Shown: positions 41,547-50,087, numbered from the stretch's first letter. The stretch: 64,000 nucleotides of DNA from Candidatus Dormiibacterota bacterium (GCA_963709585.1 CAVPXI010000016.1:64001-128000); one strand, 5' to 3'. Notes: generated by a model from the letters alone, not told the origin. Made by a program: numbers and translations.

Positions 41547-41954
41547 TCAGCGGGGCGTATCGGCCGACGGGATCGCCGGCGATTCGCGTGACCGCTCGAC
41601 CTTCGTGGACAGCTGCGCAGGTGTCGTGTCCGCCTTGACCAGGAACTCGAGGGCCCCGAGCTTCAGGCCACGCTCGCGCAACTCGGGCTCGCCGTAGTTG
41701 CTGAGAATGATCACCGGGATGTGGGTTGTCGCCGGGTCTCCCCGGAGCCGCTCGAGCACCTCGAACCCGTCGAGGCCGGGCAGGCGGAGGTCGAGATAGA
41801 TGAAGTCCGGCACCTCTTCGTTGGCCATCCGCAGACCTTCCTCGCCGTCGCGTGCGACCACCACGTTGTAGCCATCCGCCGCGAGCCGCAGGCGGTACAT
41901 TTCCGCGGCTGCGGTGTCGTCCTCGATCAACAGAACCTTGACGTCATCGTCCAC
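41547..41954 (-). CDS. Stand-alone response regulator receiver (copy A)
   Basis: GAGGAGG RBS; VLLIEDD, YLDLRLPGLDG, IILSN, FLVK. Confidence 0.92.
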   Translation of the reverse strand: MDDDVKVLLIEDDTAAAEMYRLRLAADGYNVVVARDGEEGLRMANEEVPDFIYLDLRLPGLDGFEVLERLRGDPATTHIPVIILSNYGEPELRERGLKLGALEFLVKADTTPAQLSTKVERSRESPAIPSADTPR

Positions 41955-42076
41955 AAAGCTTCCTCCTCTGACACCCGCCATCGGTGAAAACCCCTGGCAT
42001 CCGGCTCCGCTTCGTTTCTCTGATTTTAGCGCTCCTGCGTCCTCGGGATATTGACACATGACGACTATAAGATTGC

Positions 42077-42106
42077 TTGACACTCCTTATGCCAAGCTGA
42101 TAGTCT
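42077..42106 (+). promoter_or_regulatory. Sigma70-type promoter TTGACA-N18-TAGTCT (extended TG)
   Basis: Perfect -35 and a TAnnnT -10. Confidence 0.6.
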
Positions 42107-42111
42107 GCCTT

Positions 42112-42195
42112 GCGGTCGGAGAACGTCAATCACGCCTGAATTCCTCTCCCCAAAGCCCACCCCGCCGGGGGTCGCGCCCCCGGCGGGGTGGCACC
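42112..42195 (+). ncRNA. Candidate sRNA or structured leader 1
   Basis: Follows the promoter; anti-SD-like TTCCTCTCCCC, then a perfect 15-bp stem (42157-42171/42177-42191). Confidence 0.45.
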
Positions 42196-42301
42196 GTGCC
42201 GGGCAGATGCTAGGGGCTGGTGATGAGCGCGTTCTCGACGGCCGACACACGATATAGACTCCCACTCAATGATCGACAGCGCCCCCGGCTGAGCAGGCTC
42301 G

Positions 42302-42946
42302 ATGGCCATGCTTTCGGAGCGCCGGTCGGTGGCGCTGTCGGCGGCCCGAGCATCCGAACCGCATGACCGATGCCGATTCGGCCGCGATTTCGATCGGGCG
42401 ACTGTCGAATGCCCGGCGTTCCAGCGAGCCCAGTTCATCGCCGCAACCTCGTATGGAAAGCCGCTCGGTACACACGTGGCGTGCTCACACCTGCTGGTTG
42501 GCGAGCTCACCACGAACCAGTTCTACCCTCGCTGCTCACTCGGCTCCGATCTCGACAGGATGAGCTGGCTCGAAACCATGGGTCCCCGGCGGATCGAGGT
42601 GCTCAGGGCGCTCAACGCCGAGTTCGAGACGCTCTACCCCGATTCGCTCAGGCAGCTGGTTGCGGCCAAGGCAGTCGCGCTCGCCGGCCCCCCGGACGAC
42701 CGCCCGGGCCGCCTCGCGCTCGCCGCGGTGCTTCGAGAGTTCCTTGCGGAGTTCAGCGCGTTTGTGAACGCCAACGCGGACCGCATCGCCGAGATCGGCG
42801 TCTTGCCGACCGATCTGACCGTGCGCGCCGCGCGGGTGCTCGGCGAGTGGCAGCACAGTTCGCGGCTGGATCTGCCGGGACTCGACGAACAGTCGATTCT
42901 GCGACCCGAAAACCTCCGTGCTCTGCACGACGCGCGCCAGCGGTGA
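42302..42946 (+). CDS. Hypothetical protein with four N-terminal-half Cys
   Basis: Good ORF coupled to the downstream MerR (GTGA overlap); no recognised family. Confidence 0.65.
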   Translation: MAMLSERRSVALSAARASEPHDRCRFGRDFDRATVECPAFQRAQFIAATSYGKPLGTHVACSHLLVGELTTNQFYPRCSLGSDLDRMSWLETMGPRRIEVLRALNAEFETLYPDSLRQLVAAKAVALAGPPDDRPGRLALAAVLREFLAEFSAFVNANADRIAEIGVLPTDLTVRAARVLGEWQHSSRLDLPGLDEQSILRPENLRALHDARQR

Positions 42947-43287
42947 GCCGGGCCGCCGCGTCGGCAGAACAGGCGAAGCTGTTGAACCTCGACAAGCCGT
43001 TGTACACGATCGGCATCACCGCGGAAATCCTCGCCACCCATACGCGCACGCTGATGATGTACGAGCATCTGGGCCTCGTCGTCCCCAGCCGAACCGCGAC
43101 CAACCGCCGCCTGTACTCGCAGCGCGACATCATCACGCTCGGAGCGATCCAGAGGCTGACTCGCGGCTACGGGCTCAATCTGATCAGTGCGCGCTATCTC
43201 ATCCACTGCCTGCAATTGCTCGACGCGCATGGAGTCCCGAGGCCGGCCGGCCTGACGGACATCGACGTGGAGCACGTGAAGGTCTGA
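42943..43287 (+). CDS. MerR-family (HspR-like) regulator, copy A
   Basis: PLYTIGITAEILATHTRTLMMYEHLGLVVPSRTATNRRLYSQRD. Confidence 0.88.
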   Translation: MSRAAASAEQAKLLNLDKPLYTIGITAEILATHTRTLMMYEHLGLVVPSRTATNRRLYSQRDIITLGAIQRLTRGYGLNLISARYLIHCLQLLDAHGVPRPAGLTDIDVEHVKV

Positions 43288-43303
43288 GGCTCGACGGGCG
43301 GGC

Positions 43304-44053
43304 CTACTGGGTGATGCGGTCCGAGCGGTCCCGAAACCGTGCCACAGCCTCGGAGATCGTTTCCTCGAGGTACTGGTAGAACACCCGGCGCTGGGAGATG
43401 TCGATCGCCGCCTCGACGTGGTGGCCTTCTCTGCGTCGCGCGATCCATGGGGGCACGCCGTCGGCGACCGCCTCGGTTCCCACCCGAACGTGCACGAGTG
43501 CGTCGTCGTCCTCCGCGACGTGCAGGGTCACGTTGAGGATGGGACCGGTGTGTTCGATGAGGCGCCAGCTGCGCTCCCATCGGGCGTTGCGGCGAACGTC
43601 GTGCGCGAGCCGCACAGCGTCGTCGACGAGGACGCTCTCGCCCGGCCGGGCCGTCCGAGCAAGCATCGTCCGGACGTTTTTGTCGATGTCACGGGCGATC
43701 CAGTCGACAAGCGACGGAGCGCGATCGTCGATGTCGGGACGACCGCTCTGATCCAGCGCCAGCTCACCGATCGCCTGCACAGTGCCTGCGTGCCGGCGGC
43801 AGTAGACGACGCCGCCGAGCGAGATGCCGTGCGCGGGACAGATCGTTGCCGGGCATGAGCGTTCGCGGCGGTCACGGTATGCACACAGCTGCGCGGTCAG
43901 GTTGCCGCAACCGCGCATCGTGCACGCAATTCCCGACGCGGGGCGAGCCGGATGCGGGGAGCGCTCTCCTCGGCGGAACAGTGCCGTTCCCGGCAAGGTT
44001 CCAAGGCGACGAAGCGCGCGCGTCTCCCTTCGGGGAGTCTCCGCAGTCGGCAC
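43304..44053 (-). CDS. Cys/His-rich hypothetical protein (B-box-like zinc finger)
   Basis: C-x4-C-x7-C-x9-C-x4-C-x2-H...C-x2-H; GGAGG before GTG 44053. Confidence 0.65.
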   Translation of the reverse strand: MPTAETPRRETRALRRLGTLPGTALFRRGERSPHPARPASGIACTMRGCGNLTAQLCAYRDRRERSCPATICPAHGISLGGVVYCRRHAGTVQAIGELALDQSGRPDIDDRAPSLVDWIARDIDKNVRTMLARTARPGESVLVDDAVRLAHDVRRNARWERSWRLIEHTGPILNVTLHVAEDDDALVHVRVGTEAVADGVPPWIARRREGHHVEAAIDISQRRVFYQYLEETISEAVARFRDRSDRITQ

Positions 44054-44196
44054 GGCACAGTCCTCCATGTCCCTCTCGGGCGCCGTCACCCTCGCCGGCG
44101 CCCCTGGCGTAATCAGACGCTACGGGCGGCTTCCGTGGCTTGGTGTGCGACGGCTTGCGATCCAGCGGTGACGTGGCGCAACGGCCATCGCTTGGA

Positions 44197-44577
44197 TTAT
44201 TCGGAGTCGGTGACGGACCTCGCCTTGAGCTCGTCGGCGCGCTCGTGCCAGAAGTCGAGGCGCCGCTCGAAGCGAGCTGCTTCGGCCATGAGGACCTTGA
44301 GGTCGGTGTCCTTGACCTCCGATTCCGCGTCGTCATTCATTGAGCTCAGCTGGCGCTCCGCGACCGCGAGGAGGCTGCGTTTGAAGTCGAGGAGCTCCGC
44401 GTAGACCTTGGTCCAGTGGACCGCATCGTCGACGTAGGCGGTGCGCTCGTCCTCGCCCTCGAGCAGACGTTCCGGCTCGACGGCGTCGAGCGCGGCTTCG
44501 CGTGCCTCCTGATGATCCGGGACGCGCTCCGCGCCCCGGTCCGCCCCTGAATCCTCCTGCGCTCCGGCGTCGTTCAC
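44197..44577 (-). CDS. Hypothetical helical protein coupled to a receiver gene
   Basis: LLEGED...DAVHWTKVYAELLDFK...RLDFW; GTGA overlap. Confidence 0.7.
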   Translation of the reverse strand: MNDAGAQEDSGADRGAERVPDHQEAREAALDAVEPERLLEGEDERTAYVDDAVHWTKVYAELLDFKRSLLAVAERQLSSMNDDAESEVKDTDLKVLMAEAARFERRLDFWHERADELKARSVTDSE

Positions 44578-44957
44578 GACACCCATTTTCGCGTCGCTTC
44601 GGCGAGAAGTGCGGGCGGCGTGTGCGCCTTGATGAGGTAATCGTGCGCACCAAGCTCGCGACCGCGCTCGACCAGGTCGGGTTCGCTGTAGTTGGTGAGG
44701 ATGATCACTGGGATGGCGGCCGTACTCGGAGCGGCGCGGAGCTGCTCCAGGACGTCGAAACCGTGCATCTCCGGGAGGCCGAGATCGAGGTAGATCAGAT
44801 CGGGAGCGTCCGTGCTCGCACGCTCGATCGCCTCCGCGCCGGAGCCTGCTCGGATGACGTGGAATCCCTGAGCCTCGAGCTGCATCTCGTACATCGCGGC
44901 GACGTCCACGTCGTCGTCGACGAGCAGCAGCCGTATTCCCAGTGACCCATCAGGCAT
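44574..44957 (-). CDS. Stand-alone response regulator receiver (copy C)
   Basis: LLLVDDD, YLDLGLPEMHG, IILTN, YLIK; GGGGAGAG RBS. Confidence 0.9.
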   Translation of the reverse strand: MPDGSLGIRLLLVDDDVDVAAMYEMQLEAQGFHVIRAGSGAEAIERASTDAPDLIYLDLGLPEMHGFDVLEQLRAAPSTAAIPVIILTNYSEPDLVERGRELGAHDYLIKAHTPPALLAEATRKWVS

Positions 44958-46822
44958 GGACTCTCCCCGCTGGCCGGCTACGTCCGCGCGGCAGACGCAG
45001 CGTGAATGTACTCCCTTCGCCAGGCCGGGACTTGACCTCGATGTCCCCGCCCTCGGCCTGTGCCAGCGCGCGCGAGAGGTGCAGGCCAAGCCCGGTCCCT
45101 TGAATGCCGGCGGCGATCGCACTCTGGAGTCGTCCGAATGGTTGAAACAGCTTCGGCAGGTCTTCCTCGGCGATCCCGTCGCCGTGATCGGTGACGTCGA
45201 CGGCAACCCAGCCGGGCTCGTCACGAACCGCAATGGTGACGTCGGCGCTGTCGGGAGAGTACTTCAACGCATTTGACACGAGGTTGCCGAGGATCGTCGT
45301 CACCTGTTCGGGGTCCGCCCGAACCCGAATCCGTCCGGCCAACTCGACGTTGATCGTTCGCTTCGACCGGCCACCGGCCGGGACGCGTGCTGACGCCGCC
45401 ACGGCGCGTGCCAGCGCGTCCAAACCGACATCCTTGGCGTGCTGGCCGCGGGACCGAACCTCCATCCGGCTGGTGGTCAGCATCCGGTCGACGAGTTCGC
45501 TCATGTGACGCATCCGCGCCGTCATCAGGGGAACCACCTTGGCGATCGCTTGCGGTAATTCCCCGAGCGAGCCCTCCTCGAGCATCGAGAGATATCCGCT
45601 CACCAGCGTGATCGGGGCGCGCAGCTCGTGCGAGGCCAGCTGCAGGAATTCCGACTTCTGCCGCTCCAACTCAGCCATCCGCTGGGCGTGAGCCTCGAGG
45701 CGATCCAGCTCGGCGGCCTGGAGACCCTGGGCGCGCTGTTCCGCCGCATAGCCCTGCCAGACGAGTGCCGATGCGCGCGCGGCCAAGCCCATGATCCACT
45801 CATCCTGGTCGGAGAAGCCCGACTGCGAATTCCACGCGCCGAGAATTCCGAGGGGCACCGCGGCGGTACGCCATGGGACGGCGAGCACGTCCCTCGCGCC
45901 CAGGCGCGCGAGCACCGAGTCCGGACGCGTGACCTCCAAGGCATCGCCGTCGCCGAGCCTCAGCGCCTGACCCGAGACGAGGACACGCGCCAGAACCTCG
46001 TCGCCACTGGAATCGAGCCGCCCACGCGTTGGGGGACCCGATTGCTCCGTCGCGAAGGCGGATCCCTGGTGGAGCGGGACCAGTTCGGTGCCCGTGAGCT
46101 GCCAGAAACCAGCGCGCTCCGCGCCGACCAGGCGGGCGACAGTTTCGCTCATCTTTTCGAAGAAGGTCGCCGGGTCCAAACTCGAGGCGACGTGCCGCGA
46201 CATCTGCGTCAGTGAGTTCATGCCCGCGTCGCTGCGCGCTTCGGACCTCGTCCACAAGACGCGCGTTGCGCAGTGCGAGGACGGCGAGCAAGCCGACCTG
46301 CTGGAGCCCATCGAGCTCGTTCGCGACAAACGGCCGGTCACTTCGCCGGCTCAGGATCAGCACTGCCCCGACGGTCTCGCCCACGGACAGCGGCACGATC
46401 GCGGTATGGCGCATCGCCTTCAAAGCGGGCGTGATGTCGGGGTCAGAGGTGCCGCTTTCGGCGAGGCTGCCGCCCAGCACGATCGCGCCCGTGGTCACCG
46501 CCTGATACAGCAGCGGCTGCCTCGGCAACCAGGTCAGCGGATATTCGTGTCCGATGAAGTTGGGTGGCCCGCCGCGCTGATAGCTCGCCTCGACGCGGAG
46601 CACGTCCTGGTCGAGGCTCGTCAGGGTGCACCGGTCGACGTCGACGTTTTCGGCGGCGAAACGGACGAGGCGTCCCATGATCTGGTGCGGGTCGCCGAGG
46701 GAGACGACGTCCGCTTCGATCGACCTGGCGAAATTGGCCGTCGTCGGTGGGCGGGGATCGACGTCAGAGGCGGACGTGCTCGATGTCAATCCCGACAAGC
46801 TCCGGAGGCCGAGGGATGCCAT
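44950..46822 (-). CDS. GAF-GAF histidine kinase split by a +1 frameshift at about 46223-46225 (start uncertain)
   Basis: GAF ORF (45800-46831) ending ...LVDEVRSAQRRG continues as MNSLTQMSRH... in the kinase ORF (LASHELRAP, NALKYS, GTGLGL); the joined sequence aligns with the 37698 kinase. Confidence 0.85.
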
Positions 46823-47108
46823 GGGCGTCAAGAAGTTGCAGACATTTGATGACGTATCGCGCCCCGGCGATGTTCAACCCGTACTGCCGGGTGAGCCGCT
46901 GAATCGCGCTCAGCGTGAGCAGGTCGCGTTGCGAGTACCGACGACGGTTCGTCGCGGTGCGCTCCGGCACACCGAGTCCCATGGTCTCGTACATCATCAG
47001 AGTCCGAGGGTGGCTCGCCAGGATCTCGGCGGCGACGCTGATCGTGTACAGCGGTTTGTCGAGATCGAGCATCTGCTCGGACGTGGGAACCATCATCTCA
47101 GCGGGCAT
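46764..47108 (-). CDS. MerR-family (HspR-like) regulator, copy B
   Basis: PLYTISVAAEILASHPRTLMMYE...RRRYSQRD; about 70% identical to copy A by manual alignment. Confidence 0.88.
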   Translation of the reverse strand: MPAEMMVPTSEQMLDLDKPLYTISVAAEILASHPRTLMMYETMGLGVPERTATNRRRYSQRDLLTLSAIQRLTRQYGLNIAGARYVIKCLQLLDAHGIPRPPELVGIDIEHVRL

Positions 47109-47210
47109 CGGATCGAGTGAACCGCGCGCCCGGGACACTGCGACCGGCAGCGCGCAACCTGAGCAACACGACAGCGATTCTATACGTCAATCGCCGCGGC
47201 GCTCGAAGGG

Positions 47211-47414
47211 TCAGACGAAGCTCACGCTGGTCGCGGGGCGCTGGCGGAAGAACTGCACGCGGCAGTGGTCACAGCGGAAGACGAGGCGAAGTCCCATTCT
47301 CCCCAGCACCTCGGTGATCCGCGAGCTGCACTGCGGGCAGGTCGCAGCCTCGTCGAGGTAGGGGCCGACCACCGGCTTGACATCGAGCTGGATCGGCTTG
47401 TATCTGCGAGCCAT
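47211..47414 (-). CDS. 67-aa zinc-ribbon protein
   Basis: GGAGG RBS; MARRYKP...CPQC-x18-CDHC. Confidence 0.7.
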   Translation of the reverse strand: MARRYKPIQLDVKPVVGPYLDEAATCPQCSSRITEVLGRMGLRLVFRCDHCRVQFFRQRPATSVSFV

Positions 47415-47504
47415 CAAGTACCTCCAAAGTGCTGGGGTGGGTTCCCTGATCCCCACCGTCAAGAGCATCCTATCACAAAACGTGATAGTACCGTTATTGC
47501 TATC

Positions 47505-47684
47505 ATGGGATCGATGTCCGAAATGCTGTCCCGCGGCCGGGGAAAGACGGGTGGTGCGCCGATCCGGTCGCGATCCTTCAGACGGCGCCGGAGGATGGAC
47601 CTCCGCACCGTTGCAACCGGTGCGGCGCTGTTCGTGGCGGCCGCCTGGACCATCATCTTCGGAGTGGGCGTGGTCCTCCGCTGA
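47505..47684 (+). CDS. Small protein with Arg-rich stretch and C-terminal TM helix
   Basis: RSFRRRRRMDLRTVATGAALFVAAAWTIIFGVGVVLR. Confidence 0.45.
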   Translation: MGSMSEMLSRGRGKTGGAPIRSRSFRRRRRMDLRTVATGAALFVAAAWTIIFGVGVVLR

Positions 47685-47848
47685 CCCTGTCGCCGGCTCG
47701 AGCGTCGCGGCTGCCATCGACCGAACCGGCCGGCAGCGGTTGCAGCCGGGCTGGAGAACATATCGCGCTTCTGCCTGCTACCGTACAAAAGGCGGAAGTC
47801 AATTCTGGCCGAGGGAGCGCTGACTCCACCCGGCATGGAGGAGCAGTT

Positions 47849-48244
47849 TTGGAGGATGACGTCAAAGTCCTGCTGATCGAGGACGACGTCGCCGCCGCGG
47901 AGATGTACCGGCTCCGCCTGGCGGCCGACGGCTACTCGGTCGTGATCGCGCACGACGGCCAGGAAGGCCTGCGCATGGCAGCCGACGAAGCCCCAGACTT
48001 CATCTATCTCGATCTCCGCCTTCCCGGTCTCGATGGGTTCGAGGTGCTCGAGCGGCTCCGCGCCGGCATGGCGACGAGACACATCCCGGTGATCATCCTC
48101 TCCAACTACGGCGAGCCGGAGTTGCGGGAGCGTGGCATGAAGCTCGGTGTCCTGGAGTTCCTGGTCAAGGCTGACACCACCCCAGCCCAGCTCTCCGAGA
48201 GCGTCGAACGGGCGACCAGCCCGCGCGCACTGCCCTCAACCTGA
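47849..48244 (+). CDS. Stand-alone response regulator receiver (copy B)
   Basis: GGAGGAG RBS, TTG start; 100 of 114 aligned residues identical to copy A (manual count). Confidence 0.92.
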   Translation: MEDDVKVLLIEDDVAAAEMYRLRLAADGYSVVIAHDGQEGLRMAADEAPDFIYLDLRLPGLDGFEVLERLRAGMATRHIPVIILSNYGEPELRERGMKLGVLEFLVKADTTPAQLSESVERATSPRALPST

Positions 48245-48262
48245 GGTCAGCGCGGCAACGCC

Positions 48263-49399
48263 GTGGCGGACCTGGCATCCACCTGGGATGATCCCGGGTC
48301 CGCCGACGACACGTCCCGCACGCTCCTCCTCGAGACGCTCAGGCTCGCCTCCCAGCTGGCCTCCGCACGCGGCCGCGAGCGCGAGGCGTCGCTGCTTCTG
48401 CTCCACAGCGATGTCCTGACCTGCGTCGCGGCGTCCGGGGTGGCGGGGAACGTGGGGCACGGGCCGTACCGCGTGACGGAGCATCCGGCGTACGAGCATG
48501 CGATGACCACCGGCGAGATCGTCGAAGACGCGTCACGCACCCTGTTTCCGGTGCGGGCGGCGGGCGATGTGACCGCGCTCCTGGTGATCGACGATGGAGA
48601 GGGGCTGGACGGCGAGCAACGAAGCAGTTTGACCTTGATCGCGCGCATCCTCGGCCTCGGCGTCGACCAGGCCGCGAGCATCGATGAGCTCCAACAGGAG
48701 GCGGAGCGCAGCCGCCGGCTCGAGCGGCTCAAGGGCGAGTTCCTGAACATCGCAGCTCACGAGTTGCGCAGCCCCCTCGGGATCATCCGGGGATATGCGT
48801 CCATGCTCAGTGAGGGAATGCTCGCGGAGCCGGATCGTGGCGTGGCGCTGACCCGGATCGGGGAGAAGACCGAGGAGATGGCGCGTCAGGTTTCCGAGAT
48901 GCTCGAGACCGCTCGCCTCGAGACGCTCGGCTTCGAGTTGCAGCTCGAACCGGTCGATCTCCTCGGGGTGGTCGACGACGCGGCGGAGGCGATGCGTCCG
49001 CTGTTCGGAGCCAACCACCGGTTCGTGGTCTCGGCGCCGCGCGACCCGATCGCGGTCGTCGCCGATCGGCGACGGCTGACGATGACGCTCACCAACCTCA
49101 TCGACAACGCGATCAAGTATTCGCCTGCGGGCGGGGAGATCGAGATCGGCTGTGAGCACGACGGCCGGGACGCCAGCATCTCGGTTCGCGACCATGGCAT
49201 CGGCATCAGCGCTGAGCAGGCCCACCTCCTCTTCACTCGATTTGGCCGCCTCGTCACGCCGGAGACGAGCCATATCCGGGGTACCGGGCTCGGCCTCTAT
49301 CTGGCCCGCGAGACCGCGCGCCTGCACGGGGGAGACATCGTGGTCACGTCAACGCCCGGGGGCGGCAGCACCTTCACGGTGATCCTGCCCCTCGCTTGA
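48263..49399 (+). CDS. Sensor histidine kinase with a degenerate GAF domain
   Basis: IAAHELRSP, NLIDNAIKYS, DHGIG, GTGLGL. Confidence 0.9.
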   Translation: MADLASTWDDPGSADDTSRTLLLETLRLASQLASARGREREASLLLLHSDVLTCVAASGVAGNVGHGPYRVTEHPAYEHAMTTGEIVEDASRTLFPVRAAGDVTALLVIDDGEGLDGEQRSSLTLIARILGLGVDQAASIDELQQEAERSRRLERLKGEFLNIAAHELRSPLGIIRGYASMLSEGMLAEPDRGVALTRIGEKTEEMARQVSEMLETARLETLGFELQLEPVDLLGVVDDAAEAMRPLFGANHRFVVSAPRDPIAVVADRRRLTMTLTNLIDNAIKYSPAGGEIEIGCEHDGRDASISVRDHGIGISAEQAHLLFTRFGRLVTPETSHIRGTGLGLYLARETARLHGGDIVVTSTPGGGSTFTVILPLA

Positions 49400-49409
49400 G
49401 CGGAAAAGC

Positions 49410-49499
49410 AAAAAGTCCACCCCGCGCCGTGGACGTTGGCCGGCGGGATGGACTCTGCTGGGAGGGGGGTGGGGGACGGCGATCACCCGACCGCCGACC
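49410..49499 (-). ncRNA. Candidate sRNA 2 (about 90 nt)
   Basis: 5' hairpin CGGCGGUC-GGGU-GAUCGCCG, unpaired CCCCACCCCCCUCCC, then a GC-rich stem with a UUUUU tail; no ORF. Confidence 0.6.
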
Positions 49500-49504
49500 C
49501 TACG

Positions 49505-49534
49505 AGCTTAGTGATCCGTACCCCAGCCTGTCAA
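49505..49534 (-). promoter_or_regulatory. Sigma70-type promoter TTGACA-N18-TAAGCT driving sRNA 2
   Basis: Reverse complement of agctta (49505-49510) ... tgtcaa (49529-49534). Confidence 0.6.
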
Positions 49535-49580
49535 ATTAGTGGGTAGCCGGGTTATACAGTTTTGTCGACCTTGTGGCAAC

Positions 49581-50087
49581 TCACGAGTTGTCCGCGACGT
49601 ACTCATCGGGATCCCTGTCCTCGATGCTGATGCCGCGGGCGCCCGCATGCTCGGTCTCGAAGGAAGCGAACGCTGAAGCCACCTCCGCCTGCTCGTCGGA
49701 CGAGGCGGCATCGTCGAACTCGATGAGCGGGCCCTGCTCCTCTTCGTACATGTGCTCGGTGTTGGCGTGCTCGGTGGCGTTGACGGCCTCCCACCAGGCG
49801 GCTTCGCCGATCCGCTGACCCTCGGCGTCGCGGATCGCGTCGCGAATCTCATTGTGGTCCCGGATGGCGTCCTTGGTGTCATCGGTCGCGTCGGAGTCGT
49901 CCTTGAGCAGCCGAGGATAGAAGAGCGCCTCCTCCGCCGCCGCATGGACCTCGAGCCGGGCCGAGAGCGCGGCCCACAGGGACGCGATTGTCCCAGCATC
50001 GTCCCGCGCGGCTTGCAGCGCCGCGAACTGGCTGCGGAACCAGATGTGGTCAAGGCGGATGAGGTCGGTGACCCGGGTGGTTTGCAT
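49581..50087 (-). CDS. Hemerythrin-like (HHE) domain protein
   Basis: DH...HAAAEEALFYP...DHNEI...HMYEEE. Confidence 0.85.
   Translation of the reverse strand: MQTTRVTDLIRLDHIWFRSQFAALQAARDDAGTIASLWAALSARLEVHAAAEEALFYPRLLKDDSDATDDTKDAIRDHNEIRDAIRDAEGQRIGEAAWWEAVNATEHANTEHMYEEEQGPLIEFDDAASSDEQAEVASAFASFETEHAGARGISIEDRDPDEYVADNS

Follow-up and report, generated by a model that had tools for sequence, protein, structure and literature searches.

In a 64,000-nt stretch of DNA from Candidatus Dormiibacterota bacterium (GCA_963709585.1, CAVPXI010000016.1:64001-128000; hereafter the window), we studied two short elements associated with an island of signalling genes: unit 1, on the plus strand with its -35 box at position 42077, and unit 2, on the minus strand with its -35 box at position 49534. 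We consider it rather likely that these units are related genes for trans-acting small RNAs (sRNAs) of ~85 and ~95 nt, respectively, each with its own promoter and a C-rich seed. The conservation pattern, structure and non-coding nature of the units, their uniqueness in the genome and their restriction to a single genus were established in silico.

All sequence elements that a preliminary description of this DNA had listed for the two units were found in place when the sequence was read directly. The promoter of unit 1 (42077..42106, +) consists of a -35 box TTGACA (42077-42082), an 18-nt spacer and a -10 box TAGTCT (42101-42106) of the TANNNT type. It is followed by the octamer GCGGTCGG (42112-42119), by the C-run TTCCTCTCCCC (42141-42151) within a C-rich seed predicted to be unpaired, TTCCTCTCCCCAAAG (42141..42155; genus consensus TTCCCCTCCCCAAAG), and by a GC-rich 3' hairpin of 16 bp with the arms CCCACCCCGCCGGGGG and CCCCCGGCGGGGTGG (42156-42192), a putative terminator without a U-tract. 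The predicted RNA of about 83-85 nt spans 42113..42195 (covariance model R2, 74.7 bits at 42105-42194), with its 5' end placed provisionally ~7 nt past the -10 box and its 3' end at the foot of the hairpin. On the opposite strand, the unit 2 promoter (49534-49505, -) comprises TTGACA (49534-49529), an 18-nt spacer and TAAGCT (49510-49505). Downstream of it are a 5' hairpin (49496-49477) that contains the octamer GCGGTCGG (49494-49487), a 16-nt C-run (49475-49460), a long 3' hairpin (~49453-49415) and a U-tract (49414-49404), with the sequence after the hairpin reading TTTTTGCTTTT down to 49404; the predicted RNA of ~95 nt covers 49404..49498 (model R1, 95.2 bits). The C-rich stretch of unit 1 is UUCCCCUCCCCAAAG in the genus and UUCCUCUCCCCAAAG in the studied genome, that of unit 2 is CCCCCACCCCCUCCCAAC, and the 5' arm of the 3' hairpin, CCACCCCGCCG, is common to both units.

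Conservation in relatives, which the preliminary description had proposed to check, was confirmed by BLAST among 60 relatives, with both units being found in the same genus. The 24 sister-family genomes in this set included two unpublished genomes, G044 and G048, on which only the negative tally for that family depends. The conserved BLAST block of unit 2 began at the -35 box in five relatives and 5 nt before it in two more, and it ended at the T-tract. Among the aligned relatives of unit 2, TTGACA was present in 17/17 and TAAGCT in 15/17 (TGAGCT and TAGTCT in the others), and the spacer was variable. At the unit 1 loci of 28 relatives, TTGACA or TTGACT and TANNNT were 16-19 nt apart, again over a variable spacer; given that the regular expression used for this promoter demanded TA...T, the -10 hexamer is not an independent observation here, unlike the -35 box and the spacing. 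The unit 1 promoter is followed by a segment of varying sequence, then by CTCCCCAA, which is invariant in the 19 aligned relatives, and then by the nearly invariant 3' hairpin. A block conserved from the -35 box to the 3' hairpin, with a variable spacer, is what one would expect if each unit were a gene under a promoter of its own, and the retention of both promoter hexamers over variable spacers likewise points to such a promoter. We also noted that TAC(C/G) is kept ~7-8 nt past TTGACA in the spacers of both promoters in the alignments of relatives (42083-42100 and 49528-49511), and that a TATA(A/G)-containing block lies just 5' of the -35 box, GCTAT(A/C)AGTTTGC in unit 1 and CTGTATAGC in unit 2. 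These two motifs may form an operator shared by both units.

The covariance model of unit 1 detected one sense copy in each of 34 of the 41 other genomes of the genus, and that of unit 2 one sense copy in each of 22 of the 41; neither model found a match in any of 75 genomes from 21 other genera of the family, and, many of the surveyed genomes being incomplete, a unit that was not found is not necessarily absent. With a joint model of the two units (R3), matches were obtained in 33 of the 39 genus genomes among 151 genomes drawn from the order. Five weak R3 matches, three in genera g7, g13 and g26 and two in genus genomes, lacked the promoter-hairpin design and appeared coding-like by eye. A metagenome scan with the unit 1 core yielded only two further loci, both of them full unit 1 copies, and did not increase the depth of the alignment. 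In 20 of the 22 other genomes with both units, a single contig carried the two in convergent orientation, at a distance of 5-9 kb and on either side of the same island; in the remaining two genomes they were on separate contigs. In genomes G002 and G032, unit 1 with its promoter lies outside the island, between a kinase gene and a gene for a small membrane protein. Unit 1 thus appears, from this second context of the same promoter-to-hairpin block, to be a portable module. Four islands contain unit 1 and no unit 2; their hemerythrin and kinase genes are separated by a short gap, between a few tens and roughly 110 nt, of unrelated sequence without a match to either model. Unit 2 is therefore an accessory module rather than simply a terminator required at this junction. 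The constant placement of the two units, the second context of unit 1 and the islands without unit 2 all speak for self-contained genes. A lone stem resembling the 3' hairpin of unit 2 or unit 1 was seen just past the RR3 gene in G013, a genome without unit 2 (locus L210, 4809-4843), and it may be a remnant of unit 2.

Folding energies were lower than those of shuffled sequences for both unit 1 (z = -4.5) and unit 2 (z = -3.9), with 0/200 shuffles being as good. For unit 2, 97.8% of cells were paired in an alignment of 23 sequences and five pairs showed compensatory changes, a number reached by 1 of 500 shuffles; controls slid along the alignment gave 0-3 such pairs. The 3' stem of unit 1, with 14 consensus pairs, is nearly invariant and showed 0 compensatory changes, so that its sequence, and not its fold alone, is conserved. 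Because the 3' stems of both units hardly vary, covariation is unable to support them. In 24 of 28 relatives the 5' segment of unit 1 folds into a hairpin with an energy of -5 kcal/mol or below, by means of a wide variety of stem sequences; this segment has z <= -1.5 in 15 of the 28, relative to shuffles that kept mononucleotide content only. In both units the C-run is positioned as a linker joining the 5' hairpin to the 3' hairpin. Among the unit 2 RNAs, 20 of 21 had a CUCCC-containing heptamer that was predicted to be unpaired (P > 0.5); for unit 1 this was the case in 21 of 27, with a mean P(unpaired) of 0.72 for the seed.

The preliminary description had called both units free of open reading frames (ORFs). 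This was upheld with regard to coding signal, in that codon-position GC is flat over 42100-42340 at unit 1, but mechanically defined ORFs do overlap both units. The C-run differs by indels of 1-2 nt between close relatives and is therefore not coding.

The two units share a design that is unique in this 3.52-Mb genome. Only units 1 and 2 carry the composite motif C[CT]CCC-N3-12-CCA[CT]CCCGCCG, and TTGACA-N16-19-TA[AG][GT]CT occurs four times, two of which are the units. A C-rich octamer followed by a hairpin of -28 kcal/mol or better is found at 26 places, with such a promoter upstream only at the two units. The strength of all three patterns is overstated, because they were defined once the units were known. 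Other matches to models R1 and R2 in the genome were at chance level; three that were inspected lacked the promoter-hairpin design and were coding-like by eye. When applied to 29 unit 1 loci, the unit 2 model matched at unit 1 in every one of them and always on the sense strand, with E < 0.01 in ten (89-kb search) and with many matches being full-length and in the same register. A joint alignment of the units is colinear and shows near-invariant shared columns, CC..AG.CCACCCCGCCG...CGGC.GGGTGG. Against these similarities, or at best neutral with respect to a common origin, BLAST did not link units 1 and 2, and in a whole-genome search with the unit 2 model unit 1 was only the fifth match (17 bits, E = 3.7). 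Given that the test loci had been preselected for unit 1 and that the motifs were defined post hoc, we regard a common origin of the two units, as paralogs, as plausible. The proposal of paralogy made in the preliminary description is thus rendered plausible by the common design and by the weak recognition of each unit by the model of the other, but its appeal to the shared 5' octamer fails. With 748 copies of GCGGTCGG in the genome, and with its absence from unit 1 of the relatives, the presence of this octamer in both units is due to chance.

From these features we infer that the units are transcribed, where their transcripts end, and that they act in trans on target mRNAs. Each unit would be transcribed from its own housekeeping-type promoter, TTGACA-N17/18-TANNNT, to yield an RNA that starts with a hairpin of probably protective function, continues with an unpaired C-rich stretch and ends in a very stable GC-rich hairpin. 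The exposed stretch, of the CCUCCCC type and similar to the anti-Shine-Dalgarno end of 16S rRNA, would act as a seed that pairs in trans with G-rich ribosome-binding regions of mRNAs (GGGGAGG-like), in the manner of 6C and RoxS/RsaE, and thereby blocks the initiation of translation; because many G-C pairs would be formed, a chaperone is probably unneeded. Unit 2 is located in the gap between the convergent genes for the kinase HK3 and hemerythrin, on the same strand as the latter, with its -35 box 47 nt past the hemerythrin stop codon. No hairpin was seen in these 47 nt, so that the unit 2 RNA could also arise from the hemerythrin mRNA, and the unit 2 hairpin may serve as a common terminator for the two convergent genes.

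The studied assembly comprises 3.52 Mb in 24 contigs, with 88.8% completeness and 66.6% G+C, and the sequencing runs that contain the stretch are labelled as soil and peat metagenomes. We identified the genes of the island with Pfam, NCBIfam and a plot of codon-position GC. In order, they are a GAF kinase (-), an AI-2E transporter (+), the receiver RR1 (-), unit 1 (+), a short upstream ORF (uORF), geneA (+) and the HspR-like regulator MerR1 (+); then two unknown genes (-), the receiver RR2 (-), the GAF-GAF kinase HK2 (-) and the HspR-like regulator MerR2 (-); and finally a weak-zinc-ribbon protein (-), RR3 and HK3 (+), unit 2 (-), hemerythrin (-) and an S9 peptidase (-). RR1 (41547-41954, -; assigned with Pfam/NCBIfam), RR2 (44574-44957, -; ATG at 44957) and RR3 are receiver-only proteins, all three without a DNA-binding domain. 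The island thus has three histidine kinases and two HspR-like regulators; none of the response regulators found in it carries a DNA-binding domain. RR1 and RR3 (47849-48244) are 82% identical, and MerR1 (42982-43287) and MerR2 (46767-47069) are 72% identical; these internal duplications would fit a duplication of a whole segment, from which the two RNA genes could stem as well.

Other features of the island were also noted. The 76 nt 5' of the RR1 start codon (41960-42035, -) are 86-99% identical in nine relatives, well above neighbouring intergenic DNA, and had no Rfam match; this stretch may be a conserved 5' leader or an operator region. The HK2 gene (44950-46831, -) is split over two frames at ~46221-46224, giving ORFs 45800-46831 and 44950-46341. 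In the relatives compared (such as G003 and G033) the segments matched by tblastn adjoin each other without a change of frame, and contigs of related strains have one base fewer at 46221, so that the split would reflect either a frameshifted gene or an assembly error. No Pfam or NCBIfam match was obtained for geneA (about 42308-42946, +; no known family), unk261, unk129 or Zn168, except for a sub-threshold zinc-ribbon match for Zn168. The 261-amino acid protein unk261 (43304-44089, -), which belongs to no known family, is encoded in multiple copies, with ~4-11 matches per genome in 42/42 genus genomes, and its matches in the Atlas are to clusters of hypothetical proteins labelled mostly Dormibacterota.

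G-rich ribosome-binding sites precede RR1, RR2 and RR3 alike. The site of RR2, GGGGAGAG (44967-44960, -), which lies within the coding end of the upstream kinase gene, had been proposed in the preliminary description as the target of unit 1. The 8-nt match between unit 1 and GGGGAGAG is real, but it is limited to the studied genome and its nearest relative and is not accompanied by covariation. Before RR2, GGGGAGA(G/A) was found in 18 of 19 relatives, and the remaining one has GGGAGA; the seed of unit 1 is CCCCUCCCC in the majority of relatives, so that the match is reduced to a generic 6-nt CUCCCC:GGGGAG pairing. In the genome, GGGGAGAG occurs 77 times and GGGGAG 1,942 times. A search of the whole genome for exact 10-12-mers complementary to the seeds revealed nothing obvious. 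When the 5' regions of island genes were paired with the RNAs of their own genomes, duplexes were within about 1.2 standard deviations (sd) of the genome background. For unit 2, the duplexes with RR1 and RR3 came to about -24 kcal/mol (background -17.4, sd 5.7); for unit 1, the duplex with RR2 came to -18.3 (background -15.4, sd 4.1). These values are not distinctive. The duplex predictions, of which the genome-wide ones used crudely called gene starts, did not single out a conserved or outstanding target, and a role of units 1 and 2 as a post-transcriptional regulatory layer of the island is a guess.

Several observations weigh against the interpretation of the units as trans-acting sRNA genes. 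With regard to targets, the island genes were not outliers in an RNAduplex comparison with 2,164 gene starts, a ranking that is rough because the starts were crudely called and several, including that of RR2, are wrong. An ABC-2 permease gene considered as a strong candidate target (GGGGAGGGGG before its start) was rejected because the site is lost in relatives regardless of the presence of the RNA. With regard to expression, we compared contigs from runs X18-X20 over 41900-49700; X18 and X19 are labelled RNA-Seq and are probably DNA, and contigs of the metatranscriptome X20 cover parts of several island genes and neither unit, which is uninformative either way because short RNAs assemble poorly. 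The unit 1 hairpin is not followed by a U-tract, and read-through of unit 1 into the downstream genes is possible; the hairpin of unit 2 is followed by UUUUUGCUUUU in the studied genome and mostly by CUCUUCG, without a clean U-run, in its relatives. Termination is therefore assumed for both units. U-tract terminators are not enriched in the region (four found, 3.6 expected). In addition, the 5' segment of unit 1 folds weakly in the studied genome (-1.2 kcal/mol), and the near-invariance of the 3' stems leaves sequence-specific constraints such as binding to protein or DNA as a possible cause of their conservation.

The alternative that withstands the evidence best, unlikely as we consider it, is that the units are cis-acting elements, with unit 1 being the 5' leader of the operon comprising the uORF, geneA and the HspR-like gene (or of the membrane-protein gene in G002 and G032) and unit 2 being the 3' untranslated region or terminator of the hemerythrin gene. 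The C-run would then act on the very transcript that carries it, for instance by covering a Shine-Dalgarno site further downstream or by stabilizing the mRNA. In keeping with such a role, a co-directional gene begins ~40-130 nt past unit 1 in both of its contexts, the hairpin of unit 1 lacks a U-tract, a GGAGG site in G002 lies ~50 nt past the hairpin and could pair with the C-run, and unit 2 lies just 47 nt past the hemerythrin stop codon on the same strand. The sequence between unit 1 and the downstream genes, however, suggests a separate promoter. The stretch after the unit 1 hairpin is variable in both length and sequence, with a -10-like box starting ~15-50 nt past the hairpin. In the studied genome this box is TAGACT (42255-42260, +) and precedes by 8 nt an ORF of seven codons (ATG at 42269 to TGA at 42292), which is outside the unit 1 RNA. 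In 19 of 20 islands, a script located a conserved TANACT box 6-8 nt ahead of a start codon without a Shine-Dalgarno sequence, an arrangement in keeping with a leaderless start of the downstream operon that is separate from unit 1. The uORF has a length of exactly 24 nt, stop codon included, in 18 of 19 islands and encodes a variable peptide, such as MIDSAPG or MIERVTA; it is likely leaderless, with its length rather than its sequence being conserved. The first gene of the operon downstream of the uORF is geneA, or the HspR-like gene in islands that lack geneA, and these genes look as if they have their own transcription start. The cis-acting alternative is also at odds with the unchanged promoter and form of unit 1 in two unrelated gene contexts, with the existence of islands that cope with a short unrelated gap in place of unit 2, and with the features of unit 2 itself, given that a plain terminator does not need a conserved TTGACA-N18-TAAGCT, a covarying 5' hairpin or a conserved C-run.

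A second alternative, to which we assign a low probability, is that the near-invariant palindrome CCACCCCGCCG...CGGCGGGGTGG and the C-run are recognition sites, either in a protein-binding RNA (a decoy or sponge) or in DNA, rather than elements that pair with mRNA; in the DNA version, the binder would be an island regulator such as the two HspR-like MerR proteins. Conservation of the unit 1 3' stem in sequence, with 0 compensatory changes among 14 pairs, retention of the same arm sequence in both units, and the presence in the island of two HspR-like regulators and no DNA-binding response regulator all favor recognition of this kind. A palindrome that served only as an operator, however, would not need an upstream promoter, a covarying 5' hairpin or an unpaired C-run at a fixed distance, and we identified no candidate binding protein. 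The HspR operator motif is CTTGAGT-N7-ACTCAAG. Scanning of the window with up to three mismatches found none at the units and a single match elsewhere, which is at chance level. It is least credible, and in our view highly improbable, that the units are chance look-alikes, that is, unrelated intergenic hairpins near promoter-like hexamers and C-runs in a genome of 67% G+C: the lack of a BLAST connection, the 17-bit score (E = 3.7) of unit 1 with the unit 2 model and the 26 genomic places at which a C-run precedes a GC-rich hairpin are compatible with this notion, but each unit is conserved genus-wide as a whole module, the promoter is present only at the units among the 26 places, unit 1 is recovered by the unit 2 model in all 29 loci and the joint alignment is colinear with shared near-invariant columns, and indels and the frame plot speak against overlapping coding sequence as the source of conservation.

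As trans-acting sRNAs, the units would belong to an undescribed family, as had been suggested in the preliminary description. A search of the 64-kb window with Rfam 15 gave no matches at the gathering score and none at either unit with E up to 10, and membership in 6C or other families was not supported. For 6C (RF01066, gathering score of 47 bits) there was no match over 41800-49900 (E up to 10) or in the whole 3.52-Mb assembly (E up to 1). The sole match to the CcsR1 or 'cuckoo' RNAs with CCUCCUCCC (RF02791) was weak (16 bits, E = 4.2, gathering score of 65.3) and lay in a kinase gene, at 48347-48422, rather than at the units.

Several known RNAs nevertheless resemble the units in part. The hosts of 6C RNA are high-G+C bacteria with TANNNT-type -10 boxes. 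Like the units, 6C RNA of Actinobacteria (mycobacterial B11) is short, highly structured and GC-rich, with exposed C-runs that pair with G-rich mRNA; these C-runs are displayed in hairpin loops and bind mRNAs through multiple G-C pairs independently of a chaperone (PMC6486639). The units differ from 6C in that their C-run is a single-stranded linker rather than a hairpin loop, in that they occur in another phylum, and in that two paralog-like copies flank one island. RoxS/RsaE and other C-rich sRNAs of Bacillota direct unpaired C-rich seeds at Shine-Dalgarno sequences and are encoded by stand-alone genes with a promoter and a terminator hairpin. The units likewise have a C-rich predicted seed and the form of stand-alone genes, but they have no Rfam match, differ in architecture and phylum, and show no counterpart of the RoxS regulators (ResD, Rex) or targets. 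The csRNAs of Streptococcus are paralogous sRNAs with an anti-Shine-Dalgarno core under the control of CiaRH, and the units resemble them as paralog-like anti-Shine-Dalgarno RNAs linked genetically to two-component signalling. The promoters of the units, however, have no identified response-regulator operator and the island receivers lack a DNA-binding domain, and the convergent arrangement of the units 5-9 kb apart differs from that of tandem copies. DapZ and MicL are enterobacterial sRNAs that are embedded in 3' untranslated regions and have their own promoter. Unit 2 is similar to these RNAs in its position directly past a same-strand protein gene, its predicted common terminator and its predicted internal promoter, whereas the organisms are unrelated.

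Dormibacterota are an uncultured soil phylum that is abundant in cold and dry soils and for which regulatory RNAs are not known to have been described; in the literature library searched, no paper joined Dormibacterota with sRNA or small RNA. The units, which are conserved and probably paralogous, probably represent a new sRNA family of a familiar kind; because this kind of regulator is already well known, the finding would add a family rather than a principle. It would provide a testable case of regulation by C-rich seeds outside Actinobacteria and Bacillota, as well as a first handle on the promoter and terminator grammar of the phylum, including TTGACA-N17/18-TANNNT promoters, hairpins without U-tracts and a leaderless-type uORF. 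A more far-reaching proposal, which we put forward with considerable reserve, is that the two RNAs are the output arm of the island, with GAF/hemerythrin signalling (redox, O2 or NO) and the HspR-like repressors setting the level of anti-Shine-Dalgarno RNA and thereby damping translation of RR1-RR3 and many other mRNAs. If this were true, the units would constitute a genus-specific RNA switch for entry into a dormant state of low translation.

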